Source: an uncultured Planctomycetia bacterium | GTDB taxonomy: Bacteria; Omnitrophota; Gorgyraeia; 2-02-FULL-51-18 | NCBI GenBank assembly: GCA_964489945.1 | Contig: CAZBAY010000003.1 | Span: 1 to 33,820 of the forward strand | Reading direction: 5' to 3' | Length of the DNA stretch: 33,820 nt | Part shown: positions 5,393-32,071 of the stretch, piece after piece | Numbering within the stretch: position 1 is the stretch's first letter | Layout of the letters: each line of letters begins with the position of its first letter | Position numbers and translations under genes: made by a program | Notes under the pieces: model-generated | Databases searched by the model: none | What the model was told of the DNA's origin: nothing | What the model saw: only the letters and a program-made list of their open reading frames with translations

Positions 5393-5394
5393 GG

Positions 5395-11381: not shown

Positions 11382-11388
11382 ACAATCC

Positions 11389-13442: not shown

Positions 13443-13458
13443 TTTTTTCCTTGTGTAA

Positions 13459-13479
13459 GGGCGACCCATCGGGTCGCCC
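13459..13479 (-). other. GC-rich 9-bp hairpin in the nirB-nirD intercistronic spacer
   Basis: GGGCGACCC (13459-13467), a 3-nt loop, then GGGTCGCCC (13471-13479). The pairing is perfect. Confidence 0.7.
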
Positions 13480-13488
13480 CTACGTTGA

Positions 13489-18386: not shown

Positions 18387-19376
18387 TCAGCGGGAAAGTC
18401 CGAGCGCCGAAGCGGGAGGTTCGCTCCGGAAAACAAGCTCGATGGTTTTTTTGGAAAGAAGGAGTTTGGTAAAACTTAAGGCCGCCTCGCGCCCCATCAG
18501 CCTCTCGGTCACGAAGGCCGCTCCCCACCGCGCGAAATTCAGCCCGTATTTGAGGAATAAAAGGCATTTCAGCGTGAAGAGCCCCGCGAAACCGTAATAT
18601 TTCCGCGCGAAATAAAGCTGGCTCCTCCGGTACTCGACAAGCACATTGAGAATATTTTTTTTCGCCGAGATCCCGCCGTAGTGAATGATCGTTATGTCCG
18701 AATTGTAGTGGATCTTGAAACCAAGCCGTTTGATCCGCTGGCACAGATCGATGTCCTCGAAGTACATGAAAAAACGCCCGTCCAAAAGGCCGGCGTCCAC
18801 AAGCGCGTCCTTCCGCGCCATGAGGCACGAGCCCGATACCCAGTCCACTTCCGTGTAGCCCGCGTATTTTTCCTCCAGATAGTCCCGGATCTTAAGATCG
18901 TTCAAAGACAGCCGGTGGTGCAGGAGCTTCCGGAACGCCTCGGAGATGAGCGTCGGGAAACTCCCCCAGGAAAGCTGGAGTTTGCCTTCCCCGTCGAGCT
19001 GGCGTGGACCGATCGCGCCGGTATTGGGATTCGCGATGAGATAATCCAGCATCCGGTCGAGGCAATTATCGAGGATCTTCGTGTCGCTGTTCAAAAGAAG
19101 GAGGTAAGCGCCTCGCGCGTTCGAGATGCCAAGATTATTGGCCCGGGAAAATCCCAGGTTCGCTCCCGTTTCGATACAAACGACCTCCGGGGCTTCCCGG
19201 CGGATCAGGTCGAGACTACCGTCCTTTGAGCCGTTGTCGATCAGGATGATCTCAAAACCGCACGCGGGAGGATTCGAGTAAATGGAACGGATGCACTGAA
19301 GGGTGTAATCGGGGGTCTCGAAATTGACGACGACGATACTTAAAGTGACGGGGTGATCGGCCTTGTTCTGCGCCAT
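18387..19376 (-). CDS. GT2 family glycosyltransferase
   Basis: LSIVVVNFETPDYTLQCIRSI, ILIDNGSKDGS, LLLNSDT and FMYFEDIDLC are typical of rhamnosyl/GalNAc-type GT2 enzymes. Confidence 0.82.
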   Translation of the reverse strand: MAQNKADHPVTLSIVVVNFETPDYTLQCIRSIYSNPPACGFEIILIDNGSKDGSLDLIRREAPEVVCIETGANLGFSRANNLGISNARGAYLLLLNSDTKILDNCLDRMLDYLIANPNTGAIGPRQLDGEGKLQLSWGSFPTLISEAFRKLLHHRLSLNDLKIRDYLEEKYAGYTEVDWVSGSCLMARKDALVDAGLLDGRFFMYFEDIDLCQRIKRLGFKIHYNSDITIIHYGGISAKKNILNVLVEYRRSQLYFARKYYGFAGLFTLKCLLFLKYGLNFARWGAAFVTERLMGREAALSFTKLLLSKKTIELVFRSEPPASALGLSR

Positions 19377-19425: not shown

Positions 19426-21597
19426 TCATCTGCCCGGCGCCGCGTAACGTTTTAACTTTTCCAGCCATTCCCCGGGCAGGCGCTTTTTGAGAGCTCCCTT
19501 GACGGCCGCGGTCAACCTACGCGGCATTCTCCACAAGGTCTCCCTCCGCATGACGTCTTTAAGCCGCGAAACGAGCTCATCGCCGCCGTTGCGGCCGCCG
19601 GACCGTTTGAGATGTTCCCCCATATGGGCTGAGATCCTGTCCTTGAACAAAAGTCCCTCGCGGTATTCATCAACGCTGCGGCTGTATATCAAATTGTAAC
19701 TCTGCGCGTGAACCCTCCATTTGAGGTGTGCCTCGGGCAGGTAAAAGAACCTCCCTTTCAGGCTCAACTGGGCCAAAAGCCACCAGTCAAACCAAGCATC
19801 GTGTTTGGCGGAAAAATCGATCCCGTCGAGCGACTTTTTCCGAGTCACGAACGAGGAGAAAGTCAGAATGAAATTGTAGTGGAGAAGGTACGGGAAAGCA
19901 TAAAAAGGTTTGTCAGCGATCTCCGAGTCCAAAAACTTCCTCCAATGGTATTGCTCGTTCAGCGAGCGGATGAGGCCGTCGTCTCCGAACATTTCGACGC
20001 CGCTGTGGACGACCGCTACGTCCGGATGGCGTTCCAGCACAGCGACCTTCTGGGCGAGGTTCTCCGGAAGCCAGACGTCATCCGCCTCAATGAACGCCAC
20101 ATAGTCGCTGGTACACTTTTCGAGGCCCAGCCGGTAGGTTTCAATGAGGCCTTTGTTCAGCCTGCCCTCATGGAAATAGACGCGTATCTTTCCGGGAAAT
20201 TCCCGCTCATACCGTTTAAGGATCTCCGGGGAGGCGTCGGATGAACCGTCATCCACAATGATAAGCTCCCACTTTTGATAGGTTTGTGCCAGGACGGAAT
20301 CCACAGCCTCCGAGATAAATTGCTGATAGTTATAACTGGGCAAAATAATGGAAACCTTCCCGGGCTCCATTTTGCGGCCCTCTTCATTTCTATTTCGCGC
20401 TGGAATACCCAGGTCTTCCTGAACTACCCTTTCCATCCGGTCCATGAAAGGGCCCCACGTCCACCGGCTCAAAACTTCGGAACGGCCCGCTTCTCCCATG
20501 CGGCGCATCGCGTCGGGATCGGCGAGGCACGCCTCGATCTTGCGAGCCCAGAGAGACTCGTCGCGCTCCAAAATGAAACCAGTCTTGCCGTCCACAATCG
20601 TTTCGAGGAAACCGCCCTCTTTGACGGCGAGCACCGGAACGGCGCACGCCATCGCTTCAAGCGGCACAAGGCCGAAAGGCTCGCGGACCGACGCGCATAA
20701 GACTAAAGCGCTTCCATGATAGGCGGCCTGCAATTCCTCCTCGCTGACACGGTGACGGACTTCGATCTCGACGCCCGTTCGGGAGGCCTCTTCTCCGCAT
20801 TTTTTCAAAAAACTGGGGCGGATAGCGTCACAGATAATGACAAGCTTCGGCCGGCGGCTCTCCGGAATAAGGGCCAGCGCGCGGATCAAAAAATCATGGC
20901 CTTTAAAAGGATCCATGCGGCCCACCGACAACACATGGGTTTTGGGTACGGAAGCTTCGCCCGGACTGAATCGCTCTGTGTCTACGCCTTGATAATTGAC
21001 CAGCGGTTCCACTCCGTAAACGCGTTTGATCCATGACGCCGTAAAACGGGAATTCGTCATCACCCGTTTCGCCGCCCACATGCTCCGCCTGTCTTCGCCT
21101 TTGATGTGAGCGCGGTCCGGCAAGCTTATGATCTTACGGATCTGCTGTCGGAGGGGTTGACGGAAAAATTCCAGCCATCCCGTTAAGTGTATGGCGGCAT
21201 TGCCGTTCGCCAAGGCTTCATACGGGCCGATGCGCAAAGGCTCCTGGGAATAAAAAATATGAGGCTTCTTTAAATAACGCAAAACGGGAGGAGAGCCGAA
21301 ATACCGACATTTGCCGATGAGAACCCATTCCGCGTCAGAGGCGTTGATCGCCTCGGCGATCCGGCGCGTCGCGCGGTCATAATTTTCAAACCGCGAGGGG
21401 CCTTCGAACCGCAGGGTTTCCACGACCACACGGTCGGCCCACGTTCCCAGCGGAAGAAAATCCTGTTCCGCGCTTGAAAAGGAATAGAGGGAGATTGTGT
21501 ATCCTCTCTCCTTCATCACCCGCATCTTGTCATGAAGGACCCTGAGGGCCCCGCCTGACGGCAGGTTATGAAAGACGGCTAGCTTCCGCATGCTCAT
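19426..21597 (-). CDS. two-domain glycosyltransferase: N-terminal GT4 (GT-B) + C-terminal GT2 (GT-A)
   Basis: The N-terminal half carries a GT4 C-domain signature (..SVREPFGLVPLEAMACAVPVLAVKEGGFLETIVDGKTG). The C-terminal half carries GT2 motifs (VSIILPSYNYQQFISEAVDSVLAQTY, LIIVDDGSSD, FIEADD). Confidence 0.82.
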   Translation of the reverse strand: MSMRKLAVFHNLPSGGALRVLHDKMRVMKERGYTISLYSFSSAEQDFLPLGTWADRVVVETLRFEGPSRFENYDRATRRIAEAINASDAEWVLIGKCRYFGSPPVLRYLKKPHIFYSQEPLRIGPYEALANGNAAIHLTGWLEFFRQPLRQQIRKIISLPDRAHIKGEDRRSMWAAKRVMTNSRFTASWIKRVYGVEPLVNYQGVDTERFSPGEASVPKTHVLSVGRMDPFKGHDFLIRALALIPESRRPKLVIICDAIRPSFLKKCGEEASRTGVEIEVRHRVSEEELQAAYHGSALVLCASVREPFGLVPLEAMACAVPVLAVKEGGFLETIVDGKTGFILERDESLWARKIEACLADPDAMRRMGEAGRSEVLSRWTWGPFMDRMERVVQEDLGIPARNRNEEGRKMEPGKVSIILPSYNYQQFISEAVDSVLAQTYQKWELIIVDDGSSDASPEILKRYEREFPGKIRVYFHEGRLNKGLIETYRLGLEKCTSDYVAFIEADDVWLPENLAQKVAVLERHPDVAVVHSGVEMFGDDGLIRSLNEQYHWRKFLDSEIADKPFYAFPYLLHYNFILTFSSFVTRKKSLDGIDFSAKHDAWFDWWLLAQLSLKGRFFYLPEAHLKWRVHAQSYNLIYSRSVDEYREGLLFKDRISAHMGEHLKRSGGRNGGDELVSRLKDVMRRETLWRMPRRLTAAVKGALKKRLPGEWLEKLKRYAAPGR

Positions 21598-22777
21598 GCA
21601 CTCCCTCTTTCGGCTCCGTTAAGCGGCCCGTTTCGGTGATCTTGTCGAGTGCCGCTTTCAGCCGCTTGGCATTTTCCGCCGCGCTGAATTTTAAAAGAAG
21701 ATGCTCGCGCGCATCCGTGTCGATGCGGTAACCGGGCTCAAGCACCTTACGGATCCCCCGTCCGATATCCTCGGCGGAAGACGGGTCGACAAATTCCGCG
21801 TACCCCTCGCCCGACTCAAGCATACCGCTGTTGTTCGAACACACGACGGGGATCCCGCAACCCACCGCTTCCAGGACCGGCAACCCGAACCCTTCATACC
21901 ACGAGGCGTAAACAAGCGCCCGCGCGCCGTGATACAGGCTGATAAGATCCTCTTTCGCCACTTTTTCGAGGATCCGGCAGCGCGGATCGCGGCCGATCGT
22001 ATCATAGACCGAGCGGTCACCCCACCCGTCGCCGCCCACAAAGATCAGATCCTCGGGGATCGAGGATTTGATCTTCAGAAAGGCGTTATAAATATTTTCC
22101 GCGTTTTTTCTGGGCTCAAAAGAACCGACGACGAGGAGATAGTTCCCTGTAGAAGGGCGGACCGAGCCGTCGCCCAAACAGAAATCGGGGTCATAGGTGT
22201 TGTACACGACGGAAATATTTTCCGCGGAGATCCCGTTCCGGAGCAGGTCGCGCCGCGTGTTTTCCGAAACCGCGATCACATGCCTCGCCTTCCGGTAGTT
22301 CGACAAAAAATCGATCTTCCAGTGAGGGGGAAAATCAAACCATTCACGGCGGATGACGGGACTCAGATCATGGCACAGCGCGACCCATTCCTCGGCAGGC
22401 GGTAGCGAACCCACGAGGTGGCGGAAAATGAACTGTTTGACGTCTCTGAGGCGGTGCCTGAAAGCGGGCGGCAGACAGCGGTATAGGTCCCGCACGGGCC
22501 GCCACACGCTTCTGCGGAGCCATTCCGTCGTGTAGTAGTAGAATTGTCCGTGGTCCCGGCCGTCCACCGAAATGTCGTAAGGAGGGGTCAAATTGAGGTA
22601 AAGGTCGTAACGCCCCTTGAGCTGTTTGGTATTTTCCAGCAGTGTGAACTCGTAACAGGGGACCAGCGGAAAAAGATCCCTGAATGACCTTTGGTGGACG
22701 GTTGTGCCGTTGCACCCTTTGGAATAGGCCAGCACTAAGACCCGGTTCACCAATGCCGCGCTCCCCTTCTTAGCCAC
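21566..22777 (-). CDS. GT4 family glycosyltransferase
   Basis: The C-terminal EX7E-type region YASWYEGFGLPVLEAVGCGIPVVCSNNSGMLE is present. It overlaps the downstream gene by 32 nt and the upstream gene by 8 nt. Confidence 0.8.
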   Translation of the reverse strand: MAKKGSAALVNRVLVLAYSKGCNGTTVHQRSFRDLFPLVPCYEFTLLENTKQLKGRYDLYLNLTPPYDISVDGRDHGQFYYYTTEWLRRSVWRPVRDLYRCLPPAFRHRLRDVKQFIFRHLVGSLPPAEEWVALCHDLSPVIRREWFDFPPHWKIDFLSNYRKARHVIAVSENTRRDLLRNGISAENISVVYNTYDPDFCLGDGSVRPSTGNYLLVVGSFEPRKNAENIYNAFLKIKSSIPEDLIFVGGDGWGDRSVYDTIGRDPRCRILEKVAKEDLISLYHGARALVYASWYEGFGLPVLEAVGCGIPVVCSNNSGMLESGEGYAEFVDPSSAEDIGRGIRKVLEPGYRIDTDAREHLLLKFSAAENAKRLKAALDKITETGRLTEPKEGVHEHAEASRLS

Positions 22778-23537
22778 AGGTTTCCACCACGCGCCCTTTG
22801 AACGCGGCCCATTCCCATCTCAACGCGCCGCGTGCCGTCGACAAAAGCGACTGGCCGCGCGCATAACCGAGCGCTTCCATGGCCCCGCCATGATGTTTCC
22901 AGAAAAGATGATGCAATTCCTCCGGCATCTCGTTCTTCCAGGCGCCGACCGCGCCGCGGCGGAAAAACGTCCGCCGCCGGAACGCCCTTTCCTCCGGTGA
23001 AAACCCGTGCTGAACGCCGCTGCCGTACGGCATGTCCTTCGTTCTAAGGTCGTCGAACGACGGCAGCTTCTCGCGCCGCGGCTCCGTCAGGTCCAGAAAG
23101 GGGCGCAGGCGTTCCGCGCAGGCGATCGGGTCCTGGATGAGATCCTCGAAACGGATCACAAGCGACGCGCGCCGGAGCCACTGCGAGACATTCGCGCTCC
23201 ACCCGCCAAAGTGGCTGCCATCATCGGCAAGGATCGCCTCGATGAGGTTCCGCCTGAAATCCGACCCCGGAGAGATGAGGTTCGATCGGTGGTGCGCGAT
23301 CGAGACCAGCGCGTCACGCCCGTCGCGCACGATATAGACCGCGGGGATCGCGGGGTCCGCGGGCACAAGCTCATTCGGAAGAAGGTGCGTCTTCACGACC
23401 GCATGCCGGCCGTAGTCCGGCTTCACGGGATACGCGGGCTCCTTGTGGAACGTGCTGGATTCGATGCCGTAGACTTCATGCAGTACGATACGGAAGAACG
23501 TATTGCCCGATCTCGGAAAGGACGCGAGCCAGATCAT
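22770..23537 (-). CDS. sulfotransferase, Sulfotransfer_1-like (PAPS-dependent)
   Basis: A 5'-phosphosulfate-binding-type loop sits at the extreme N-terminus (WLASFPRSGNTFF), and a 3'-phosphate-binding-type motif follows (YIVRDGRDALVS). It forms an ATGA overlap with the upstream gene's stop (23534-23537). Confidence 0.75.
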   Translation of the reverse strand: MIWLASFPRSGNTFFRIVLHEVYGIESSTFHKEPAYPVKPDYGRHAVVKTHLLPNELVPADPAIPAVYIVRDGRDALVSIAHHRSNLISPGSDFRRNLIEAILADDGSHFGGWSANVSQWLRRASLVIRFEDLIQDPIACAERLRPFLDLTEPRREKLPSFDDLRTKDMPYGSGVQHGFSPEERAFRRRTFFRRGAVGAWKNEMPEELHHLFWKHHGGAMEALGYARGQSLLSTARGALRWEWAAFKGRVVETCG

Positions 23538-24523
23538 CGCCGCGTAACCCCGATCAGGTCGAGAGCCTCGGCCGGCGTCGAGATCACGAACCGGCGCGCG
23601 TCACGATGTGACAATAACTGATCAATGTTCTTTTTTAAATGCTCGAAACGGTGCGGGTAAAGCGTCACGCAGGACCTCACCTCCAGCACGAGGAGAGGTT
23701 CTTCGGAAGAGCGCAGGATGCGCTCGATCCCCTGCGCGAACGCTTGCGGATTGATCGCAAGCCTCAGCGTGCGGAATTTGGGCCGCAGGCGTTTTCGGTC
23801 AAAAAGCGCGCAATAGGCGGTTTCAAACACGCCCCGTCGATCCGTGAAGGAGCCCGTGCTGACCGGGATCATCCACATGCCGTCCGTGCGTGACGGATCA
23901 GGTGTCCTGAAATCCTCGCGGCTCGGTCGGAACGGAAACAAAGGCACAGGCGTTAAATCCGGAACGGCTCCCGTCACGATCTCATTTTTCCTTTCCGCGC
24001 GACGCGGCTTCTTTCCTGCCTCGAGTGTCAGATCAAAATGCACGCCGAGAGTTTCCAAAAAGCGCGCAGTCTGATTGTTCAACCAGGCATCGCCAAAGCG
24101 GAACGAGCGGCACGGCCTCCCAAAGCTTTCAAGGAACGCGCGGAACGAGACATCCACGCAATGCTCGACCCACCGCTGGTCACCGTGGTCGACGATCCAC
24201 CGGCGCGCTTCGCGGTCCCAGCGCCAGGCATGCGTGTGCAAACCGATCTCGTCGCCGTTTTGCTCAAATTCATTGACGAGCTCCCGGTAGTTGCGGACAC
24301 CCCAGTCCGGCGCTCCCCACCCCACTTCGACCTGCGGATCCATGCGGAAAAACCACGAAAAATGGGGCGGTGAACCGGTCACCGACGCCAGACGCGGCCG
24401 CGCGCTCCTGAAAAAAACGGCTGTTTTCTCGAGGCCGCGCCAGGGCTCCAGACTTCCGGGCTCAAAAAGCCGCTTGTCGGGCTCAGCGTCCACGCAGACA
24501 ATGACCGGGATCTTTTTATTCAA
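23534..24523 (-). CDS. polysaccharide deacetylase-like (CE4-like) protein, putative
   Basis: VIVCVDAEPD and DEIGLHTHAW loosely resemble the CE4 Asp and His metal/catalytic motifs. I prefer the TTG start at 24523, which gives an 8-nt overlap with the upstream gene. The listed ATG at 24607 would overlap by 92 nt. The family call is weak. Confidence 0.45.
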   Translation of the reverse strand: MNKKIPVIVCVDAEPDKRLFEPGSLEPWRGLEKTAVFFRSARPRLASVTGSPPHFSWFFRMDPQVEVGWGAPDWGVRNYRELVNEFEQNGDEIGLHTHAWRWDREARRWIVDHGDQRWVEHCVDVSFRAFLESFGRPCRSFRFGDAWLNNQTARFLETLGVHFDLTLEAGKKPRRAERKNEIVTGAVPDLTPVPLFPFRPSREDFRTPDPSRTDGMWMIPVSTGSFTDRRGVFETAYCALFDRKRLRPKFRTLRLAINPQAFAQGIERILRSSEEPLLVLEVRSCVTLYPHRFEHLKKNIDQLLSHRDARRFVISTPAEALDLIGVTRR

Positions 24524-25496
24524 TCGACACCCCGCTCGGCTCCGGAACACCTTTGGTTTCACGATGGAACTCAACGATCGCCCGCGCGGCCGCGCGCACG
24601 TTCGCACGGATCTCCTCCGGCGCGGAAGGCGAATGCAAACTTAAGGGGCGTCCCTCCTCGAGTGAGACCAAGAGTTCCGTGAAATAACGCGAGACCGCTT
24701 CCTTGACCCTCAAGGACCGCAGGTTCCCCCAGTCGAGCAGTCTTGCGATCCTCTCGCGCAGTGTCGGCTCCGGCCGCGCGCCCTTGCTGGCCTTCGATAG
24801 ACCGCCGATATGCACAAGAGTGGGCGAATCTTTAAAAACGAGCTTTTCTCCCGCTGCCTGCAGCAGCAGGTTCAGCATCTTTCCGGTGTCATACGTTTCT
24901 TTTTTCAGGCCCGCCTGCACGAGCCACGGCCGGTGAGCCTGCGGCACGCGCTGCCAATAGCGGAAGCGGTCAAAGGCTATCCCCGTGCGCCGGATGCATT
25001 CGATAAGTTTCCGGTTGTCATAGACCGCAAAGAACGTGCTGCCTGCGCAGAAGCCGCCGGCCCGGCTGTGATTGCCCTTGATCTTCCTCGAATGGCGCAT
25101 AGGTGCCGCTTCGCCGGACGAGGCCCAGATCGCGCGGCCCGAGAACACGGCCGCATATTCACGCAGAAGCGGGACAAACTCCTGAAAAAAAGGGCCCGTA
25201 GCTAGAATGTCCGAATCCATGAAACAGAAATGGCTTGACGTCTCCTTCTCCTGGAGCCTGTTCAGGGCTTCCGCGTGCTTTAAAACCTCGCGCGGCGAAA
25301 GACGGAAAAACTGAAGCCGCGGACTTTCCGAACACAGCGTCTCCAGCAGCCTTTCTTCTTCGGGGAGACACCCGTTGGCGACAAGCCGGTAGGAGCAGTC
25401 CGACCATTTCAAAAGACTGCGCACGAAGAAGGCCAGATACCGGACCGTTCCGGGCGTATAGATGATGTTAAACGTGAAGTTCATGGTTCGAGGCAC
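24516..25496 (-). CDS. hypothetical protein, possible GT-A-fold transferase with DSD (DxD) motif
   Basis: 326 aa with no family I recognise. It has an N-terminal beta-strand-like FTFNIIYTPG and CFMDSDILATGPF. It sits in an operonic position between sulfotransferases. Confidence 0.5.
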   Translation of the reverse strand: MPRTMNFTFNIIYTPGTVRYLAFFVRSLLKWSDCSYRLVANGCLPEEERLLETLCSESPRLQFFRLSPREVLKHAEALNRLQEKETSSHFCFMDSDILATGPFFQEFVPLLREYAAVFSGRAIWASSGEAAPMRHSRKIKGNHSRAGGFCAGSTFFAVYDNRKLIECIRRTGIAFDRFRYWQRVPQAHRPWLVQAGLKKETYDTGKMLNLLLQAAGEKLVFKDSPTLVHIGGLSKASKGARPEPTLRERIARLLDWGNLRSLRVKEAVSRYFTELLVSLEEGRPLSLHSPSAPEEIRANVRAAARAIVEFHRETKGVPEPSGVSIE

Positions 25497-26130
25497 AGCG
25501 CAACTGCCTTAAGCGTACGCCCTCCCGGTACAATACCACGTCCTTTTCGTTCAACTGACGTATGGTTTCTTTGACCTCCTCGCCGACAGGAGGGAACTGG
25601 GCGCGAAATTCTTTGTTGATGTTCACATGGGCGGGCTCCACCCTTCCCCACCCCATCCGCTCTGCCAATTGCCGGAGGTCCTCGTCAAAATGTTCCATGA
25701 TGCCGACGAAGAAGAAATCCTTAAGCGCGGCTCCTTCGAGGAACCGCGACATACGGTTGCGGCTCGAGTCTTGGCGGACATAGTCCATCAGCGTTTCGTC
25801 CCGGCGGTGGTAGGCATGGGGCCGCTCGCCGCTGCCAGCCCTCTGGATGAAAAAATAATAATTGGACAGCACGCGCTCGACAGGTTCCCGGAGCCAGGTG
25901 ATCAAGGGCACCTCCGTTTCGTGATGGAGCTTTGAGATGTCCGAAAAGGTAAAATGGCCGTGCAAGACCTCTACGGAAGGAGGGATCGATCTCTCGAGAT
26001 CTTCGTTCCACTTTTTGCCGCTCACGCGCGTCACGTTGAAGACCTTTTTCTCGCCATAGACGCGCCTCAAGACGATACGGAACGACCGGCCCGCGGTTTT
26101 TGGGATATGGATAGATACTAACCGGATCAA
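25468..26130 (-). CDS. sulfotransferase, Sulfotransfer_2-like (paralog B)
   Basis: IHIPKTAGRSF PAPS-loop-type motif, LITWLREPVERVLSNYYF, and a clear paralog of the upstream gene. The TTG start at 26130 forms a TTGA overlap with the upstream stop. Confidence 0.72.
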   Translation of the reverse strand: MIRLVSIHIPKTAGRSFRIVLRRVYGEKKVFNVTRVSGKKWNEDLERSIPPSVEVLHGHFTFSDISKLHHETEVPLITWLREPVERVLSNYYFFIQRAGSGERPHAYHRRDETLMDYVRQDSSRNRMSRFLEGAALKDFFFVGIMEHFDEDLRQLAERMGWGRVEPAHVNINKEFRAQFPPVGEEVKETIRQLNEKDVVLYREGVRLRQLRCASNHELHV

Positions 26131-26828
26131 ACGTTGACCTCCTGATTTTCACGCCTTTTCTTTCTCAACGCGAGCGCCTCCTTATACAGGGCGATGTCCC
26201 GTTCGTTGAGGCTCCGGATCTCCTTCCGGATCTCCTCGGAAACGGGGGCTCTTTGAAGCTCACTGTCGTTATGATGAAGCGGCGGCGTCTTTTTCCAATG
26301 CAGCAAATGGGAAAGATCGGCGAGGTCTTCTTCAAAAAATTCCTGCACGCCAATGAAGAGAAAGTCCTCTGCTTTCATGCCGTCCAAAAACTTCGCGATG
26401 CGGTTCCGGGCGATCTCCGCCCTGGCATATTCCAGAAGCGTACGCTCCATTTTGTTCAAAAGAGCGACGTTCCGTTTTTGTTCCTCAAGGATGCCGCGCA
26501 GGACCTTTTGCAGATAAAAATAATTGGACAGGACCCTTTCCACGGGGTCCCTCACCCAGGTGATGAGCGGGATCCCCGCGTCGAGCCTGTAATGATGGGC
26601 CAGGTCCTTCACGCGAAAATGCCCGTGCAGCACCCGCGTCTCTCCCGGCAGACACGCGGGGCCCTGAACGGCTTTTTCGTGAGAGGCCTTTTCGTTCTCG
26701 AGAGGAATGTCCACACGCACAACGGCCTTCTCGCCGTACACGCTTTTCAGAATATTCCGGAAAGAGGTGCCGGCCGTTTTCGGGATATGAAGGGAGACGA
26801 GCTCAATTCTGGGCGGTGTCTGGAGCAT
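26127..26828 (-). CDS. sulfotransferase, Sulfotransfer_2-like (paralog A)
   Basis: LHIPKTAGTSFRNILKSVYGEK, VLHGHF, LITWVRDPVERVLSNYFY. These are the same motifs as in paralog B. Confidence 0.72.
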   Translation of the reverse strand: MLQTPPRIELVSLHIPKTAGTSFRNILKSVYGEKAVVRVDIPLENEKASHEKAVQGPACLPGETRVLHGHFRVKDLAHHYRLDAGIPLITWVRDPVERVLSNYFYLQKVLRGILEEQKRNVALLNKMERTLLEYARAEIARNRIAKFLDGMKAEDFLFIGVQEFFEEDLADLSHLLHWKKTPPLHHNDSELQRAPVSEEIRKEIRSLNERDIALYKEALALRKKRRENQEVNV

Positions 26829-28074
26829 GGGCCCAATCCGCCTGAAGATGGAACGCGGAGATCGTGGAAAATTTCCCGGTCACGATGAACCGGCTGATCG
26901 CGTGATGCCTGGCCAAGACCGTCCCCGCCTCGTCCCTCAACGCGACCGTCGTGAAGTAAACCCGGGGGCTGAGCTGAAGCTCCGGAAAGCGTACCCGGAC
27001 CCTCATTGTTTGCATCGTGTTCCGTATCTCAAAACCGCACAAGTTGGACCGGCAGTTCGAGACGGCATTTAGATCCTGATCGATAAAAATGACGTCCATG
27101 CGCGCCTTTTGGATCGCGGGGTCGAGATTAAAAGCGATCTCGAGCTCCAGATCATCGCGGTGAGCGATCGTGAAGACGCCGTCCCGGAAAGTCTGGCCGT
27201 TGCACGGAATAAAATCAGCGCCCTTGAAAACGGTCCCGCCCTTGGCCGTCGCGCTTCCGGTTTCATCGGCGAATTGCGCGTGATAATACTCGATGCCGGC
27301 CGAAATATCCTCCGACTCAAACACTTTCCTGCCTCCTTGGAGGACCATGAGCTCAGTGGCGATCCGTGTCATTTTGTCCCCCGATTGGGAAACCAGCACC
27401 GTCGCGCATTTTTTAGACAACTCATCGATCCGCTTGAAACATTTCGCTTTGAAGCCGCGGTCCCCTACCGCGAGAACCTCGTCGAGGAGCAGGATATCAG
27501 GCTCCGTCGCGACGACGATCGAAAAACCCAGACGCATCCGCATACCTGACGAATAAGTGGCGACCGGGGCGTCGATGAAACTCCCCAGTTCGGAAAAGTC
27601 GATAATAGAAGCGAGCTTCGCATCGATCATGCGGCGCGTCATCTTGAGAAGCGCGCCTTTCAAATAGATGTTCTCACGGCCGGACATAAGCGGGTGAAAG
27701 CCCGCCCCCAGCGAGATGAGGGAAGCCGTGCGGCCTTTCACCGCTATCTCCCCGGCATCCGGCGGCAGGATCCCGGCCAGAAGCCGCAGAAGCGTCGATT
27801 TTCCGCTGCCGTTCATCCCAACGATGCCCAAAACCTCCCCCCGGCGCAATTCGAAACTGACGTCCTGGAGGGCCCAGAACTCGTCCTTTCGAAGATCGCC
27901 GTTACGCGGCTTTATTCCCGCCAGGTTTTTTGAAAGATCGATGATGCCGTACCACATGCCCCGCTTCAAATCCTTGCAGAACTTCTTGTAAACGTTCTTT
28001 GCGGAAATGAGGACTTCCCCTTTTTCCGTCCGGGCCTCCGTATACCGGTCCTGCTCAAGGTGCGAATTTTTCAT
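26803..28074 (-). CDS. wzt: polysaccharide ABC exporter ATP-binding protein (Wzt/TagH-type) with C-terminal extension domain
   Basis: Walker A GMNGSGKST, signature YSSGMRMRLGF, Walker B ILLLDEVLAVGD, then about 165 extra C-terminal residues. I chose the ATG at 28074 because it forms an ATGA overlap with the Wzm stop. Confidence 0.85.
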   Translation of the reverse strand: MKNSHLEQDRYTEARTEKGEVLISAKNVYKKFCKDLKRGMWYGIIDLSKNLAGIKPRNGDLRKDEFWALQDVSFELRRGEVLGIVGMNGSGKSTLLRLLAGILPPDAGEIAVKGRTASLISLGAGFHPLMSGRENIYLKGALLKMTRRMIDAKLASIIDFSELGSFIDAPVATYSSGMRMRLGFSIVVATEPDILLLDEVLAVGDRGFKAKCFKRIDELSKKCATVLVSQSGDKMTRIATELMVLQGGRKVFESEDISAGIEYYHAQFADETGSATAKGGTVFKGADFIPCNGQTFRDGVFTIAHRDDLELEIAFNLDPAIQKARMDVIFIDQDLNAVSNCRSNLCGFEIRNTMQTMRVRVRFPELQLSPRVYFTTVALRDEAGTVLARHHAISRFIVTGKFSTISAFHLQADWAHAPDTAQN

Positions 28075-28943
28075 GTGTGTATTCTTTCGACGAGCTCGCT
28101 TTCGGAGACATAAAAAAGCCGTAAAGAAAGGAGAAAAACAGCCACCGCCAGAACAGCGGATACACCATAAGCCGCCGGATGGTAAAGCTTGCCGTGGAGA
28201 ATAATGTCCCGCGCCGAACAAACAAGATACGTCAGGGGATTCCAATGTATCACGGTTTGAAGAAACGGGTTTTGGATCTGGCCTGAATAGACTACCGGCA
28301 CCGACCAGATGAGAAGAGCCATGAAAGTGGCTATGGCTTTTTCTATATCAAAAGCCACTACTGAGATCATCGAGACGATAAGACCTAATCCCGCTCCCAG
28401 AAAAAAAAGCGGCAAAGCCACGAGCGGGAATAAGACAACGGCGGCGGTAGGAATGACGCCAAAAAAAACGAGCACCAGAAGATTGAGCGCCAGAGCGACA
28501 AAAAAATTGACGATCTGAAGGAGCGACTTTACGAACAAAAAAACTTCGTGAGGGTAATTGACCTGCAACATCAAATGCTGGCCCTCCTTGAGGGTCTGCG
28601 CGGCCGCGGTAAAAAAGCCCATGAAAAGACCCCATACGGATGAACCGATCAGAACATAAACAGGGTAAGGAACACCAACATCGCCTGGTTGAAGTACGCC
28701 GGAATGTTTGAGAAAGACCCAGACAAGAATGCCCGCCAGCGGCGTCAAGACAACCCAGGCCACCCCAATAAAGGATTTTTTGTAACTAACGAAGAAATCG
28801 CGCTTAAAAAGCTGCCAAATGAGTTCCCGTGAGTCGACGAGGCTCCGGATCATGACGACCCATGTGCCGAAATACCCCAATTCGTGGCGCTGATTGGGAC
28901 GGTAAACGGTGATCTTTTCGCCTTCTTGTGGATTGTTTTTCAT
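28071..28943 (-). CDS. wzm: polysaccharide ABC exporter permease (ABC-2 / Wzm-TagG type)
   Basis: 290 aa with 6 TM helices. The N-terminal ELIWQLFKRDFFVSYKKSFIGVAWVVLTPL is typical of ABC-2 permeases. Confidence 0.85.
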   Translation of the reverse strand: MKNNPQEGEKITVYRPNQRHELGYFGTWVVMIRSLVDSRELIWQLFKRDFFVSYKKSFIGVAWVVLTPLAGILVWVFLKHSGVLQPGDVGVPYPVYVLIGSSVWGLFMGFFTAAAQTLKEGQHLMLQVNYPHEVFLFVKSLLQIVNFFVALALNLLVLVFFGVIPTAAVVLFPLVALPLFFLGAGLGLIVSMISVVAFDIEKAIATFMALLIWSVPVVYSGQIQNPFLQTVIHWNPLTYLVCSARDIILHGKLYHPAAYGVSAVLAVAVFLLSLRLFYVSESELVERIHT

Positions 28944-28957
28944 CGCGAATTAAGGGC

Positions 28958-29716
28958 CTATTTTATACCATTCCGACGCCGGGTGACCATAAAAACCACT
29001 TCCCGATCTTTGGGGACCACGCGGACGTTTTTCCCGGAGATCATAAAAAGCCTGCGGCCCCGCGTGGCGTTGATCTCTCGGGCAAGCGCCGCCAAGTCGT
29101 GGTAACGGCGTCCATGAAGCACTTTCACCTCATCGCACACGTAGCCTCGGGAGCCCACACGGCAGTTGTATTCCGGCGCGAGTGTAGCCACCCGTAAAGA
29201 CGACAAAAAAAGCAGCCTACGAAAAGATGGCTGATCGTAGACACGGGAGACGGCACCGCGCGAATTTTCCTCATACACCTCAAGCCAGCGCCGCAGAAAA
29301 TCCCCGACCGCCGGTGATTTCCTGAATAAAATAACGCCCGCCTGAAATTCCGAAAAACTTTCCGGCACTTCGTCAGAACCATCGACTCGCCGGTTGGGCG
29401 AATGAGCCGCGGCGATATCAAATCGCGCCAGAAGCGGGAAAAGGTCCGAGAGATCCCCGCAGACATGAGTATCGGTATCCAGGTACAGCGTGTGCTCGTA
29501 GGGAGACAGCGGCAAATAGGCGATCTTGTCCCGGGAACTGCCGCGCGCGTCGGGGATCGGAATGACATTTTGAAAAAGCGCGTTCCTGACTTTTTGGTCC
29601 GAAAAAAGCGTGACCGGCAATCCGGGCATGTGTTCCTTGAGGCTCGCCGCCGAGCGGAGCGCCTCTTCGAGATACCTGGGTCCGGTCGCCACGTACACTG
29701 CGCCGCGGCGGCTCAC
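28958..29716 (-). CDS. GT8-like nucleotide-diphospho-sugar transferase
   Basis: AVYVATGPRYLEEA.., DxD motif YLDTDT and QAGVILFRK are GT8-like. I chose the GTG start at 29716, which forms a GTGA overlap with the upstream GT2 stop. The listed ORF start at 30088 lies 376 nt inside that GT2. Confidence 0.65.
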   Translation of the reverse strand: MSRRGAVYVATGPRYLEEALRSAASLKEHMPGLPVTLFSDQKVRNALFQNVIPIPDARGSSRDKIAYLPLSPYEHTLYLDTDTHVCGDLSDLFPLLARFDIAAAHSPNRRVDGSDEVPESFSEFQAGVILFRKSPAVGDFLRRWLEVYEENSRGAVSRVYDQPSFRRLLFLSSLRVATLAPEYNCRVGSRGYVCDEVKVLHGRRYHDLAALAREINATRGRRLFMISGKNVRVVPKDREVVFMVTRRRNGIK

Positions 29717-30651
29717 GAGGGCCACTTCGTGCGCCAGGATTGCGGAAAACGCCGAAACGTGTACCTCGGCGAGCCCTGCGTCAAAGAAACAAGGAACGAG
29801 CCCGCGCTCTTCCAATAGCGCCGGTTCCTGAAATAACGAACCGCGAACTTCGCGTACACCTCGGCGTAAACGGACCGCAGAGGGTCGATCGCGAAACTCC
29901 GCTGGATTAAAGGATAAAATTTCCGCACTCGCGCCACCCTGGCGGCATTGCGCTTGTCCAAATTGGACGGACCCGTCATTTGAGCATTGTGCTGCCGTCT
30001 CACAACGATCGGGGCCCTCGTAAAAACAGGATGAAACCCCGCGATGAGGCAGCGAAGATAAAAGTCGTAATCCTCCCCTATCGGACACTGCTCATCGAAA
30101 GATCCGGCTTTGTCGATCGCTTCCCTTGGGACGACCACCGACGAAGGGCAACGGATGAAGTTGGCCACGATCAGCTGGTGGGCAACAGAACGGTAGCGTT
30201 TGAGATCCGGCACCTGAACCGACGATCTTTTCTCTCCGCTTTTCATGTTCCAAATGGCCAGACCACTCACCGCGAACGTATTCTCCCGCCCTCTCAGGGC
30301 GGCTAGCTGGATCTTCAAATAATCCGGTTCCCACAGGTCATCATCGTCAAGAAAGGCGATGTATTTTCCCTTCGCTACCGCCAGCGCGCGGTTTCGCGCG
30401 CCGGTGGCCCCGCACCCGGTGCCCTCAGCGACCACATGAACCAGCGGAAAATCGTGCGCAATGACGGGACCCAGCTTCCCGCGGGGGCTGTCGTTCACGA
30501 CAAGGATCTCCGCGGAGCCGTCATAACTTTGAGCGTGAACGCTTCGGAGCGCTTCCTTCAGCATTTCGGGACGCTCAAACGTGGGGATCACCACCGAAAC
30601 ATCCGGCGCGCCGGAAGCCGCGTCCTGAGGAGATAATATTTTAATCGGCAT
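29713..30651 (-). CDS. GT2 family glycosyltransferase
   Basis: VSVVIPTFERPEMLKEALRSVHAQSY, ILVVNDS, IAFLDDDDLWEPDYL. I chose the ATG at 30651 (MPIKIL..). The listed ATG at 30723 is an alternative. Confidence 0.8.
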   Translation of the reverse strand: MPIKILSPQDAASGAPDVSVVIPTFERPEMLKEALRSVHAQSYDGSAEILVVNDSPRGKLGPVIAHDFPLVHVVAEGTGCGATGARNRALAVAKGKYIAFLDDDDLWEPDYLKIQLAALRGRENTFAVSGLAIWNMKSGEKRSSVQVPDLKRYRSVAHQLIVANFIRCPSSVVVPREAIDKAGSFDEQCPIGEDYDFYLRCLIAGFHPVFTRAPIVVRRQHNAQMTGPSNLDKRNAARVARVRKFYPLIQRSFAIDPLRSVYAEVYAKFAVRYFRNRRYWKSAGSFLVSLTQGSPRYTFRRFPQSWRTKWPS

Positions 30652-32071
30652 GGGAAACCGTGAGTTGGGACAACAAGGATTTTCCCTGCGCCGTTGGCAT
30701 GGACGCGCCGAGCCATTCCGCAAAAGTCGGGGCGAAATCCATCACCGATATGGGCTCCTTAAGCCGGCCAGCCGGAATTCCCGGGCCTTTCATGAAAAAA
30801 AGACCGTCCGGTTTGTGGTCACCGGTGCGGCATCCGTGATACTCGCCCTCGATCTCCCCCGTCTTGGGGGAAGTCACCGCGCGGATCGGCGCGCGGCGGT
30901 TCCACTCGACAATGAGATCCGGAAAGCGCGAGGTGTCCTCGCCTGGGTAGAGTTCTTCGATCCGATGTACTTTTTGAACAACAGGCTCCTTTGTTTCGAG
31001 ATTGATGAACTCGCCCAAGTCCCGGATCAGGCGATCGCGAAGCCTTTCATATCCGGCGCCGGGTTTCACGCGGCCATGCGGCTCGCGGCCAGCGAGGTTG
31101 ACCCGGATCCCGCCGTATACGGTGTTGTTGGGGACCTTGTAGCACAAGCGGTGGCCAAAACGGTCTCTCTTCGTCCTGAACCTCATCCAGAGATCATAAT
31201 GCCGCTCAAGACCCGCCAGCATCGCGTCCAAAACGGCGGTGCCGTCGTAGTGGGGCCCCATCCCGTGGCTTGCCAACACAAAAACCGCCGTCTCCGGACC
31301 CGCCTCTTCCAAAAGCCGGCCGATCTGGCTGTCTATTTCACGGTAAACATCCCGCAAGGGATCGCCGAGAGAAACAGTAAGCGCCGGATCGTGCTTGAAA
31401 TGCTGGCTATCGTGAATTCGCCAAAACTGGTGTCCGGCACAGTGGGATTCGGTAAAAACCGTGAGAAACAGATCCCATCCGCCCTTCCTTAAAAGATCGC
31501 GCGACAGTTCCCCTTTTCGCCGCACACGGTCCGTCAGGATATTCCGGAGTTCGCGGAACTCGTCCGGGGTTGTTCTCTCGCCGTCACAGCGGGGGATAGG
31601 ATTCAAACCGTATTTTTCTTTGACTTCTTCCGCCAGGCCTTCGGGCCAAGTGACGAACCCCTCCGGCTCGGGGTCGTGCGAAAACCAGTTGAAAAGCTGT
31701 ATACCGTTCAAATCCCGCGCAAGCCTCGTCCTCGGCACGTCAATGACGGCGATCCTTTTTCCCGCGCGGCTCAACGTTTCCCAGAAAAGGGGTTCCTTGA
31801 TCTCCGACGAGGGCAGTCTTTGGAATTCGTACGTGCCCGGCACCAACTGTTTGGGGCTGTAGCGCCCATGCCGCGTCGGCGACGTCCCTGTCGCAAAGGA
31901 CGGCCAGACGGCTCCGACAAAAAGAGCCGGAGGATTCTTTGTAATGCCCCAGGCCGCCTCCTCTAAAAGACGCCCGAACGTCGGCAGGATCCCTTCCCCG
32001 GCCCATTGCAAAATGAGGTCCTTGTCACCGGCATCCATCGCGATACAAAGAATCTTGGAAAGTGCGCTCAT
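30641..32071 (-). CDS. alkaline-phosphatase superfamily protein (type I phosphodiesterase/nucleotide pyrophosphatase-like), cytoplasmic
   Basis: ILCIAMDAGDKDLILQWAGEGILPTFGRL and ..VWPSFATGTSPTRHG.. resemble the NPP/Phosphodiest family N-terminus. VLASHGMGP lies in the distal metal-site region. No TM helix or signal peptide is present. Confidence 0.6.
   Translation of the reverse strand: MSALSKILCIAMDAGDKDLILQWAGEGILPTFGRLLEEAAWGITKNPPALFVGAVWPSFATGTSPTRHGRYSPKQLVPGTYEFQRLPSSEIKEPLFWETLSRAGKRIAVIDVPRTRLARDLNGIQLFNWFSHDPEPEGFVTWPEGLAEEVKEKYGLNPIPRCDGERTTPDEFRELRNILTDRVRRKGELSRDLLRKGGWDLFLTVFTESHCAGHQFWRIHDSQHFKHDPALTVSLGDPLRDVYREIDSQIGRLLEEAGPETAVFVLASHGMGPHYDGTAVLDAMLAGLERHYDLWMRFRTKRDRFGHRLCYKVPNNTVYGGIRVNLAGREPHGRVKPGAGYERLRDRLIRDLGEFINLETKEPVVQKVHRIEELYPGEDTSRFPDLIVEWNRRAPIRAVTSPKTGEIEGEYHGCRTGDHKPDGLFFMKGPGIPAGRLKEPISVMDFAPTFAEWLGASMPTAQGKSLLSQLTVSHAD

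Follow-up and report, generated by a model that had tools for sequence, protein, structure and literature searches.

A deacetylase-fold protein in a predicted sulfated-glycan operon has a glycosyltransferase, and not a sulfotransferase, as its conserved genetic partner

ORF-A and ORF-B are adjacent genes in the window, the whole stretch of 33,820 nucleotides that was analyzed, and encode a predicted deacetylase-fold protein and a predicted sulfotransferase. Across related loci the two genes are not a conserved pair and their adjacency is incidental, while the conserved genetic partner of ORF-A is a glycosyltransferase and not a sulfotransferase. The explanation that we prefer, and regard as reasonably probable, is that ORF-A is a deacylase paired with a glycosyltransferase, that ORF-B is a SULT-type enzyme that likely O-sulfates, and that the junction between them has no further meaning. 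The original prediction had read the two genes as a possible split bacterial analogue of N-deacetylase/N-sulfotransferase (NDST). Its gene identifications stand and its split-NDST inference is not supported; N-sulfation by ORF-B is likewise unsupported, although not disproved.

Both genes lie in a single long, densely packed operon on the minus strand, at about 18.4-30.7 kb of the window. Its domain content shows an ABC-transporter (Wzm/Wzt)-dependent pathway for a predicted sulfated cell-surface glycan, with glycosyltransferases of the GT4, GT4-GT2, GT2, GT2-like and GT8-like types and three PAPS-dependent sulfotransferases (two Sulfotransfer_2 enzymes and ORF-B). The features are the following:

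18387..19376, minus strand: GT2 glycosyltransferase at the distal operon end (PF00535, E 5e-23)
19426..21597, minus strand: bifunctional GT4-GT2 glycosyltransferase, 723 aa (PF00534 and PF00535)
21566..22777, minus strand: GT4 glycosyltransferase (PF00534, E 3e-21); its start overlaps the ORF-B stop by 8 nt
22770..23537, minus strand: ORF-B, predicted cytosolic-SULT-type PAPS-dependent sulfotransferase (Sulfotransfer_1), 255 aa (PF00685, E 7e-18, 65.3 bits)
23534..23537, minus strand: ATGA stop/start overlap of ORF-A and ORF-B, read directly from the sequence
23534..24523, minus strand: ORF-A, 329 aa from a likely TTG start, predicted CE4/GH57-superfamily (beta/alpha)7 barrel (AF2 model and Foldseek)
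24516..25496, minus strand: GT2w, GT2-like protein, 326 aa (weak PF00535, E 0.0028); its stop overlaps the ORF-A start
25468..26130, minus strand: ST2a, Sulfotransfer_2 enzyme, 220 aa (PF03567, E 2e-8)
26127..26828, minus strand: ST2b, Sulfotransfer_2 enzyme, 233 aa (PF03567, E 1.8e-9)
26803..28245, minus strand: Wzt-type ABC transporter ATPase with a C-terminal Wzt_C-like domain (PF00005, E 5e-22)
28071..28943, minus strand: Wzm-type ABC-2 permease (PF01061, E 4e-10)
28958..30088, minus strand: GT8-like protein (homologue of L082:6946-7764, E 1e-66)

The C-terminal domain of the Wzt protein scores below threshold (PF14524, 26.2 bits against a cut-off of 30.4), and its true start is probably near 28077; the homologue in the related locus L082 has 429 aa. 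No Pfam match of its own was found for the GT8-like protein, whose homologue in L082 has a weak PF01501 match and whose longest ORF is probably over-extended at the 5' end. Homologues of ST2a are present in L082 and L169, as well as in 29 of 80 B-family loci, and in L169 ST2b and a GT8-like domain form a single fusion protein.

The coordinates and the shared tetranucleotide had been described correctly, both ORFs lie on the minus strand, and none of these features stands out from the rest of the operon. The reading frame of ORF-A (23534..24607) encodes 357 aa from a GTG and 329 aa from the TTG at 24523. The TTG is the likely start because all 40 homologues compared begin with approximately M-x-K-I-P-V-I and the database copy has 329 aa; from this start, ORF-A and the preceding gene, which ends in TAA, overlap by 8 nt. 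ORF-B initiates with ATG, and at the junction (...ACG CGG CGA TGA TCT GG...) the TGA stop and the ATG start lie within ATGA. Among the overlaps in bacterial operons, the four-base ATGA class is the most frequent. When computed with the longest-ORF starts, all seven junctions in the order Wzt, ST2b, ST2a, GT2w, ORF-A, ORF-B, GT4 and GT4-GT2 overlap, by 26, 4, 29, 8, 4, 8 and 32 nt, respectively. Because every junction in this run overlaps, the one between ORF-A and ORF-B shows a common operon and no special relationship; it would be a by-product of operon compaction in the present genome.

The original prediction had named co-occurrence in related genomes as its own refutation test. We scored co-occurrence within +-8-10 kb in about 160 related loci and found it in neither direction: no B-family or Sulfotransfer_2 gene lies within +-8 kb of ORF-A homologues in 80 A-family genome loci, and no A-family gene lies near ORF-B homologues in 80 B-family metagenome loci (713 kb). 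Among 100 neighbours of the B family, no deacetylase family has two members. The gene directly downstream of ORF-A differs across the four members of the sulfated cluster (ORF-B, a 261-aa P-loop protein, a GT8-like protein and a GT8-like-ST2 fusion). A 261-aa gene lies between the two genes in the nearest relative, and in the three to four closest relatives ORF-A and ORF-B are either separated by other genes or ORF-B comes after a different gene, as in L087 and L088, where it is 87% identical and comes after the P-loop protein. B-family loci often contain Sulfotransfer_2 (29/80), Wzt (29/80) and GT4 (37/80) genes. ORF-B is part of a widespread module, made up of several sulfotransferases, GT4 enzymes and Wzm/Wzt, that works without an A-type gene.

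GT2w or its homologue lies immediately upstream of ORF-A or its homologue, and overlaps it, in all four cluster members (the window, L081, L082 and L169). The same association is visible within single proteins: in nine of the ten longest A-family members the A domain is joined to a glycosyltransferase-type domain (GT2 in seven, GT4 in one and DUF707/GT-A-like in one), and in none of the ten to a sulfotransferase. In one protein from another organism (P0274, 663 aa), a GT2 domain with 44% identity over 297 aa to residues 415-707 of the GT4-GT2 protein of the window is joined to an A domain. Other homologues of ORF-A are embedded in non-sulfated polysaccharide clusters (L083, L084, L170 and L171), where they adjoin GT2 or GT4 genes.

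The AF2 model of ORF-A (pLDDT 95.8, pTM 0.93) has a predicted (beta/alpha)7 glycoside-hydrolase/deacetylase barrel of the CE4/GH57 superfamily. Its best Foldseek matches in the PDB are 3rxz, ArnD (8t0j), HpPgdA (3qbu), 3lm3 and PuuE (3cl6), followed by GH57 proteins. The motifs CVDAEPD and GLHTHAW, on which the deacetylase-like assignment had been based, are found at residues 10-16 and 94-100 (329-aa numbering). The assignment holds in part: the fold belongs with the deacetylases, as the structure prediction proposed as a check indicates, and weak PF01522 matches spanning the motif-2 and motif-3 regions occur in 25 of 40 A-family members; however, ORF-A itself falls short of the Pfam CE4 cut-off (13.2 bits, where 23.1 are required), and it has DxE and HxH where CE4 has DD and HxxxH. 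The A family conserves neither the canonical HxxxH motif nor the MT5 His; it is large (1,276 representatives of clusters at 50% identity) and has no Pfam model. The near-invariant residues are D12, E14, R60, D62, D91, H96, H98 and E168, with Q64 also invariant; the putative acid, H306, is only approximately 83% conserved. The model places D12, E14, D62, D91, H96, H98 and E168 at the C-terminal end of one beta strand after another, and these residues, judging by strand position only, may form one metal site. No signal peptide is apparent, and beta strand 1 begins at residue 5. ORF-A is thus a probable cytoplasmic, metal-dependent deacetylase-type hydrolase, whose fold suggests N-acetyl hydrolysis as a putative activity.

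The closest known structures are the barrels of about 300 aa in the ArnD/HpPgdA (HP0310)/PuuE subgroup of CE4-fold deacylases (8t0j, 3qbu, 3cl6, 3rxz, 3s6o and 1z7a; Foldseek E 5e-9 to 3e-7, probability 1.0), which share with ORF-A acidic residues after beta strand 1, His residues that follow a later strand and an Arg within an FRxG-type motif, and which the apparent lack of a signal peptide in ORF-A also recalls. ArnD works at the cytoplasmic face on a lipid-linked sugar, next to a GT2 (ArnC), an arrangement that resembles the coupling of the GT2-like gene and ORF-A. The likeness has limits: TM-scores are only approximately 0.5 and identity is 11-15%, profile comparison with Escherichia coli ArnD detected no similarity, and besides its divergent motifs and sub-threshold PF01522 score ORF-A has the additional invariant R60, D62, Q64, D91 and E168 and an extra beta-hairpin at 100-112.

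The identification of the downstream protein as Sulfotransfer_1 was confirmed, as were its N-terminal PSB loop and its RDGRD motif. ORF-B carries FPRSGNTF (7-14), VKTH (48-51), VRDGRDALVS (70-79) and FFRRGAVGAWK (191-201), and the PSB loop, K49-T-H51, R71/D72/S79 and the FFRRG motif are invariant in its family. Its best PDB sequence matches are estrogen sulfotransferase (1aqu, 1e-9), SULT1A1, TEG12 and StaL, and the best 50 Foldseek matches of its model are all SULT-type. ORF-B is therefore a predicted PAPS-dependent, cytosolic-SULT-type sulfotransferase with a catalytic His. It shares with SULT1E1, SULT1A1 and TEG12/StaL the 5'-PSB loop, the catalytic His, the 3'-PB Arg/Ser and an RKG-like FFRRG motif (TM-score of approximately 0.65 to 1aqu). 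Unlike these enzymes it is short, lacks the first 40-60 residues and the substrate-gating loops of SULTs, and aligns well only at residues 46-220. Given its glycan-operon setting, the acceptor is presumably a carbohydrate and not a phenol or steroid. Glycan O-sulfation is its most likely role. The NST active site of NDST uses a Glu base, and this His-versus-Glu distinction (PMC11625862), together with the SULT-type structure, sets ORF-B apart from the NDST NST type.

A split NDST confined to a small clade, in which ORF-A de-N-acetylates an amino sugar of the nascent glycan and ORF-B or a Sulfotransfer_2 enzyme N-sulfates the amine, seems to us decidedly unlikely. As in NDST, a deacetylase-fold barrel and a PF00685 PAPS sulfotransferase are encoded together here, and the NDST1 deacetylase domain is a (beta/alpha)7 barrel of the same superfamily, in which Asp serves as base, His as acid and an Asp-His-His triad binds the metal (PMC10864358). 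One operon holds ORF-A and three sulfotransferases, sulfotransferases accompany ORF-A in all four cluster members, so that within this clade ORF-A may have a link to sulfation, and both proteins are predicted to be cytoplasmic, as PAPS chemistry needs. Colorimetric and nitrous-acid assays also suggest N-sulfated hexosamines in some bacterial exopolymers (PMC7356697). NDST, however, is one polypeptide and Agd3/CE18-like, whereas ORF-A and ORF-B are separate genes, and both NDST1 and Agd3 are absent from the best 50 structural matches of ORF-A. The reciprocal lack of co-occurrence, the adjacency broken even in the nearest relatives, the fusions of the A domain to glycosyltransferases, the lack of a recurrent deacetylase family beside ORF-B, and its His base in place of a Glu-type NST or 3-OST active site all argue against this reading.

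It is unlikely, too, that ORF-A is no deacetylase and acts as a GH57-like glycoside hydrolase or transglycosylase, or another carboxylate-based enzyme, that trims or remodels the glycan of the partner glycosyltransferase. Deacetylases and amidohydrolases (3rxz, ArnD, HpPgdA, 3s6o, PuuE and a chitin deacetylase) are its best matches by E-value and target coverage, the recurrent weak Pfam match is to PF01522, and two invariant His beside invariant acidic residues suit a metal site better than the GH57 Glu/Asp pair. The GH57 matches are nonetheless significant (E 1e-6 to 1e-4), although to much larger proteins with target-relative TM-scores of approximately 0.3; two of 40 family members match PF03065 weakly, and the carboxylate-rich invariant set (D12, E14, D62, D91 and E168), the unconserved canonical CE4 histidines and the sub-threshold PF01522 score point the same way. 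We consider it highly improbable that ORF-A acts on a small or non-glycan molecule, as the allantoinase PuuE does, or on a nucleotide or lipid-linked precursor, and was merely recruited into the operon. Consistent with such a role are the matches to PuuE and to ArnD, whose substrate is a lipid-linked monosaccharide, and the highly mixed immediate neighbours of the family (144 Pfam families among 144 neighbours in 80 genomes, many of them housekeeping), with no neighbour cluster in more than 9 of 80 loci. The repeated fusions to GT2 or GT4 domains, the conserved overlap with the GT2-like gene and the polysaccharide-cluster locations speak against it. Were ORF-A to act on a lipid-linked sugar as ArnD does, this would remain glycan-pathway deacylation and would overlap with the preferred explanation. 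Since many genomic homologues of ORF-A adjoin housekeeping genes, the A family may not be uniformly glycan-related.

According to the preferred explanation, the partner glycosyltransferase would add a sugar to a lipid-linked glycan, ORF-A, as a putative metal-dependent hydrolase, would deacylate the newly added sugar, most likely at an N-acetyl group, and ORF-B would most likely O-sulfate the glycan. Such coupling of a glycosyltransferase gene to a deacetylase-fold gene, as in GT2w and ORF-A, is familiar from PgaC/PgaB, NodC/NodB and the Acinetobacter baumannii LOS core pair 2900/2901, and in the A family fusions of both activities also exist. The deacetylases of the known pairs are canonical CE4 enzymes, one of which, PgaB, resides in the periplasm, whereas ORF-A belongs to a separate family. 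A precedent for a cytoplasmic pair is the A. baumannii LOS core, where a single GlcN residue requires both a glycosyltransferase and a predicted polysaccharide deacetylase (PMC10936431). The logic here would be the same, in that GlcNAc is added and then deacetylated.

The genes under study lie in a minus-strand operon whose content we read from Pfam scans of the window. The operon is an ABC-transporter-dependent (Wzm/Wzt) glycan cluster with three sulfotransferases, and it is composed of the following genes.

Genes of the glycan operon
28071..28943, minus strand: Wzm ABC-2 permease (PF01061)
26803..28245, minus strand: Wzt ATPase (PF00005; Wzt_C weak, 26.2 bits against a cut-off of 30.4)
26127..26828, minus strand: Sulfotransfer_2 gene, ST2b (Pfam scan)
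25468..26130, minus strand: Sulfotransfer_2 gene, ST2a (Pfam scan)
24516..25496, minus strand: GT2-like gene directly upstream of ORF-A, GT2w (Pfam scan)
23534..24523, minus strand: ORF-A, the deacetylase-fold protein (A)
22770..23537, minus strand: ORF-B, the sulfotransferase (B; PF00685)
21566..22777, minus strand: GT4 glycosyltransferase (Pfam scan)
19426..21597, minus strand: GT4-GT2 glycosyltransferase (Pfam scan)
18387..19376, minus strand: GT2 glycosyltransferase (Pfam scan)

The occurrence in one cluster of an ABC-2 permease, an ATPase with a weak Wzt_C domain and GT4, GT2 and GT4-GT2 enzymes identifies a Wzm/Wzt glycan pathway, and the same Wzm/Wzt architecture recurs in two of the homologous loci that we compared with the window, L082 and L169. 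Upstream of Wzm lie a GT8-like gene, a GT2 gene and a Phosphodiest-family gene. A search of NCBIfam returned nothing useful for A, B, GT2w, ST2a or ST2b.

Several features surround this core. The head of the cluster hosts a Phosphodiest/alkaline-phosphatase-superfamily protein (PF01663; 30641..32071) and a 573-aa protein without Pfam match (32092..33813); in the Pfam census of genes next to A homologues, PF01663 was counted two times. The longest Wzt ORF encodes 480 aa from a TTG at 28245 and overlaps the Wzm gene by 175 nt. Since its homologue in L082 is 429 aa long, the start is probably the ATG near 28077 that gives MKNSHLEQ... Similarly, the longest ORFs of the GT8-like gene (28958..30088) and of the upstream GT2 (29713..30723) overlap by approximately 375 nt; as the L082 homologue has 272 aa, the 376-aa GT8-like ORF probably starts too far upstream. 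Positions 2899..15921 of the window, unrelated to A and B, host molybdenum-cofactor genes (MobA, MoeA, MoaC/MoaB and MoaA), a TauE sulfite-exporter-family protein, a SLAC1/TehA-type channel, a molybdopterin oxidoreductase with a 4Fe-4S/DmsC-like subunit and a NirB-type nitrite/sulfite reductase, whose gene is syntenic with locus L087.

The original prediction read A and B, by virtue of their overlapping genes and their motifs, as a possible split bacterial analogue of N-deacetylase/N-sulfotransferase (NDST). The sequence features themselves were all recovered: ATGA at 23534-23537 is common to the TGA stop of A and the ATG of B (junction CGA TGA TCT), CVDAEPD and GLHTHAW are found in ORF-A, and the FPRSGNTF loop and VRDGRDALVS in ORF-B. 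ORF calling on the window gave ORF-B as 22770..23537 on the minus strand, with 255 aa and an ATG start, and the longest form of the upstream ORF as 23534..24607 on the same strand. The N-termini of 40 homologues coincide with the TTG at 24523, and A has 329 aa in the database, so we took ORF-A to be 329 aa long. The GTG start at 24607, which would give a 357-aa protein, was ruled out by the homologue N-termini. The TTG of A overlaps the stop codon (TAA) of the gene before it. When each gene is given its longest-ORF start, overlaps of 4-32 nt occur at all seven junctions from Wzt through ST2b, ST2a, GT2w, A, B and GT4 to GT4-GT2, so that the overlap between A and B is not distinctive and shows only that they share an operon. 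Plus-strand ORFs across the region, such as 23007..23621, were regarded as shadows of the minus-strand genes, which are conserved.

The Sulfotransfer_1 identity of ORF-B was confirmed by a PF00685 match well above threshold (E 7e-18, 65.3 bits, cut-off 22), the 5'-PSB loop, the 3'-PB motif, the catalytic His and the SULT fold. In a PDB sequence search, the solved relatives that match it best are estrogen sulfotransferase (1e-9), SULT1A1 and two bacterial enzymes, TEG12 and StaL. Invariant or near-invariant residues in the B family comprise the PSB loop PRSGNT (P8-R-S-G-N-T13), K49-T50-H51, R71-D-G-x-D...S79 (R71/D72/S79) and FFRRGxxG (R193/G195). When the AF2 model of B (pLDDT 85.4) was compared to known structures with Foldseek, the top 50 matches were all of SULT type (1aqu: E 1.5e-8, TM 0.65), with no NST or 3-OST structure among them. 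The catalytic base is His in SULTs, HS2ST and HS6ST, and Glu in the NST domain of NDST and in HS3ST (PMC11625862). Judged by its sequence, ORF-B is a His-type sulfotransferase, which removes the positive resemblance to the N-sulfotransferase of NDST without in itself proving O-specificity. Some relatives of B carry the label Omnitrophota.

For ORF-A, the predicted deacetylase assignment stood at the level of fold and superfamily, and it failed at the PF01522 threshold and at the HxxxH motif. ORF-A scores 13.2 bits against PF01522 (E 0.09), below the gathering cut-off of 23.1, and weak PF01522 matches are detectable in 25 of 40 family members (best E 2e-4). Searches of PDB sequences with the single A sequence and with the 40-sequence profile returned chance matches only. 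A word-indexed search retrieved 297 relatives, and an exhaustive profile search extended the family to 1276 cluster representatives at 50% identity, 593 of them with E <= 1e-30. Nearly all relatives are unnamed, and two carry the JGI label PgdA/CDA1. Many members, mostly from Acidobacteriota, are approximately 440 aa long (P0075, P0102, P0255 and P0262; loci L014, L018, L020, L022, L023 and others), and contain, past the equivalent of residue 226, an insert of some 110 aa in which the motif YEGYLDR-DC-I-GWAYD ... R-DL ... GKG-G-H-F is conserved. A family gene with 36% identity occurs in a thaumarchaeal MAG (Candidatus Nitrosocosmicus, L029).

The AlphaFold2 model of A, obtained from the 40-sequence alignment (pLDDT 95.8, pTM 0.93), has the (beta/alpha)7 deformed-barrel fold of CE4 enzymes according to Foldseek. 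The best matches are CE4-fold deacylases, namely 3rxz (4.6e-9) and ArnD 8t0j (1.2e-8), followed by HpPgdA 3qbu, 3s6o, an insect chitin deacetylase and the PuuE allantoinase; probability is 1.0 to many CE4 structures, with TM around 0.5 and identities of 8-15%. Over approximately 264 aligned members, D12, E14, R42, R60, D62, Q64, D91, H96, H98 and E168 are invariant or nearly so, and R142, D112 and R283 are conserved at 91-94%. In the model, D12/E14, R60/D62/Q64, H96/H98, R142, E168 and R283 lie within or just past the C-terminal ends of successive beta strands. These ends form the usual catalytic face of such barrels, where the model would place the conserved polar residues of A.

We compared these residues with the CE4 motifs. 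Motif 1 is TFDD, with a catalytic-base Asp and a metal-binding Asp, whereas the corresponding region of A, where beta strand 1 ends, reads C-V-D12-A-E14-P-D16 and presents an acidic DxE instead of DD (D12 99% and E14 100% conserved). Motif 2 is H(S/T)xxH, with two metal-binding His; A departs from it with an invariant H96-T-H98 (HxH) and W100 at i+4. The weak PF01522 alignment reaches this region (profile positions 44-71 against A residues 76-103). The candidate for motif 3 (RxPY) is R142 of F-R-F-G-D, conserved at 94%, and the PF01522 alignments of two family members, P0075 and P0361, run over its position. H306, conserved at about 83%, is the sole candidate for the catalytic acid of motif 5 (LxH). 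Alignment of the A-family profile with E. coli ArnD by hhalign gave a probability of 2.4%, which makes residue mapping onto ArnD impossible. We class ORF-A as a family of its own within the CE4/GH57 superfamily, and as a probable metal hydrolase; because of DxE/HxH, the limited conservation of H306 and the lack of profile similarity to ArnD, we filed it outside the demonstrated CE4 members. The model of A also matches 3lm3, a hypothetical glycoside hydrolase/deacetylase (TM 0.58), after which GH57 enzymes follow. A GH57-like, non-deacetylase activity would agree with these GH57 structures and with weak GH57 profile matches in 2 of the 40 members; with CE4-fold deacylases as the closest structures, we consider such an activity unlikely.

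The conserved functional partner of A is a glycosyltransferase, as indicated by gene overlap, fusions and neighbourhood. A GT2-like gene overlaps the start of A in all four clusters (window, L081, L082 and L169). Among the ten longest A-family proteins, seven contain a GT2 domain (N- or C-terminal), one a GT4 domain and one a DUF707/GT-A-like domain, and none of the ten is fused to a sulfotransferase. In one family member, P0274, the A domain is joined to a GT2 domain which shares 44% identity over 297 residues with the GT2 half of the window's GT4-GT2. Other A homologues have GT2 or GT4 neighbours in clusters that lack sulfotransferases. In P0300, A is fused to a DUF707-like domain; the likeness of GT2w to this domain was weak and not significant, and we discarded it. 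By analogy, the association with glycosyltransferases fits a sequence in which an N-acetylated sugar would be added and then deacylated. In the core synthesis of A. baumannii, a glycosyltransferase and a predicted deacetylase are both required for one GlcN residue (PMC10936431). Alongside so many glycosyltransferase partners, action of A on a non-polymer substrate appears highly unlikely. We infer that A would be a cytoplasmic metal-dependent de-N-acetylase (or deacylase) acting on a lipid-linked glycan after its partner glycosyltransferase; B, ST2a and ST2b would O-sulfate the glycan, which Wzm/Wzt would then export.

Three loci show further combinations. In L170 (L170:4071-4916), a single polysaccharide cluster includes both an A homologue and a PF01522 deacetylase of canonical type, a pairing that points to non-redundant roles. 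L169:4172-5722 encodes a 516-aa fusion of a GT8-like domain (homologue of window 28958..30088) and a Sulfotransfer_2 domain (homologue of ST2b), a Rosetta-stone arrangement hinting that ST2b may sulfate the sugar added by the GT8-like enzyme. In L087, a syntenic relative of the operon, positions 3485-6511 encode a 1008-aa protein with faint sulfotransferase matches and a GT2 domain, which adds a further fusion between a glycosyltransferase and a sulfotransferase.

The A and B families are independent. We scanned one genome per species under guidance of a profile and extracted 80 A loci with 8 kb of flank on each side (Acidobacteriota, Actinomycetota, Chloroflexota, Proteobacteria, Omnitrophota, one cyanobacterium and one archaeon); a scan of metagenome contigs gave 80 B loci, 713 kb in total. 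The collections consist mostly of metagenome-assembled genomes. Co-occurrence was scored within 8-10 kb of each gene, and neighbour genes were called by a longest-ORF heuristic. Neither B nor Sulfotransfer_2 relatives were detectable in the A loci (phmmer and B-family HMM, +-8 kb), nor A-family genes in the 713 kb of B loci (A-family HMM). The expected co-occurrence in related genomes was thus contradicted from both sides (0/80 A loci with B, 0/80 B loci with A). The B loci contain Sulfotransfer_2 homologues (29/80), Wzt (29/80) and GT4 (37/80), and a Pfam census of 100 B neighbours returned other sulfotransferases, GT4 enzymes and ABC transporter parts, with no deacetylase family having two members among the 100. 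A single-sequence search of low sensitivity found no match to canonical CE4/ArnD genes in B and A loci. The immediate neighbours of A are extremely heterogeneous, with 144 Pfam families for 144 proteins in the 80 genomes and, after all-against-all clustering, no family in more than 9 loci; a universal partner is therefore undefinable outside the fusions and the close clade, where gene order is as follows.

Gene order in homologous loci
L081 (A 62% identical): GT2w, A, 261-aa P-loop protein, B
L082 (A 48% identical): Wzm, Wzt, P-loop protein, GT2w, A, GT8-like, ST2, B
L169 (A 48% identical): Wzt, GT2w, A, GT8-like-ST2 fusion, ST2, ST2
L087 and L088 (B 87% identical): the gene ending at the start of B encodes the P-loop protein

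A and B are not adjacent in L081, L082, L169 or L087. The window contains no homologue of the P-loop gene, and the absence of this gene is the simplest explanation of the A-B junction there. The P-loop protein has 261-296 aa and no Pfam match (L081:1933-2718, L082:4039-4929 and, as a fragment, L087:2-445). Its motifs GPPRAGKT and IRHPL resemble the PSB and 3'-PB motifs of sulfotransferases, and it may represent an undescribed sulfotransferase-like family.

With co-occurrence at 0/80 and 0/80, adjacency lost and no A-sulfotransferase fusion in the ten longest members, the coupling on which a split NDST analogue depends is not conserved. The deacetylase domain of NDST1, an Agd3/CE18-like (beta/alpha)7 barrel, has Asp as its base, Asp-His-His as its triad and His as its acid, and it is fused to an NST of the Glu type (PMC10864358). 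Its triad follows HxxxH whereas A has HxH spacing, and NDST1 and Agd3 are absent from the top 50 Foldseek matches of A. The NST-type active site relies on a Glu base; B, in contrast, has the invariant K49-T50-H51 and cytosolic SULTs as nearest structures. None of the NDST-specific features, neither the Agd3/CE18-like triad nor the fusion to a Glu-type NST, is present here. An N-sulfation route confined to a small clade of clusters like the window is quite improbable. In that clade (window, L081, L082 and L169), whose clusters encode three to four sulfotransferases, it is distinctly unlikely that A exposes an amine on which B or a Sulfotransfer_2 makes a sulfamate. In the literature we found neither a bacterial deacetylase/N-sulfotransferase pair nor a sulfated Wzt-dependent O-antigen described.

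The present evidence does not support N-sulfation. If true, it would define genetically, for the first time, how a bacterial polysaccharide is N-sulfated, with parts that differ in detail from NDST. It would be relevant to bacterial exopolymers, in which there are chemical hints of N-sulfated hexosamines and reports of N-sulfated, glycosaminoglycan-like polymers whose enzymes are not known (PMC7356697), and to the production of heparin precursors in bacteria, which is limited by the need for an NDST compatible with prokaryotes (PMC13353177). Independently of this, ORF-A belongs to a large GT2/GT4-linked family of the CE4 superfamily without Pfam model, whose signature DxE / HxH / E168 merits family definition. 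The combination of several sulfotransferases, GT4 enzymes and Wzm/Wzt forms a recurrent sulfated surface-glycan module that is worth annotating.
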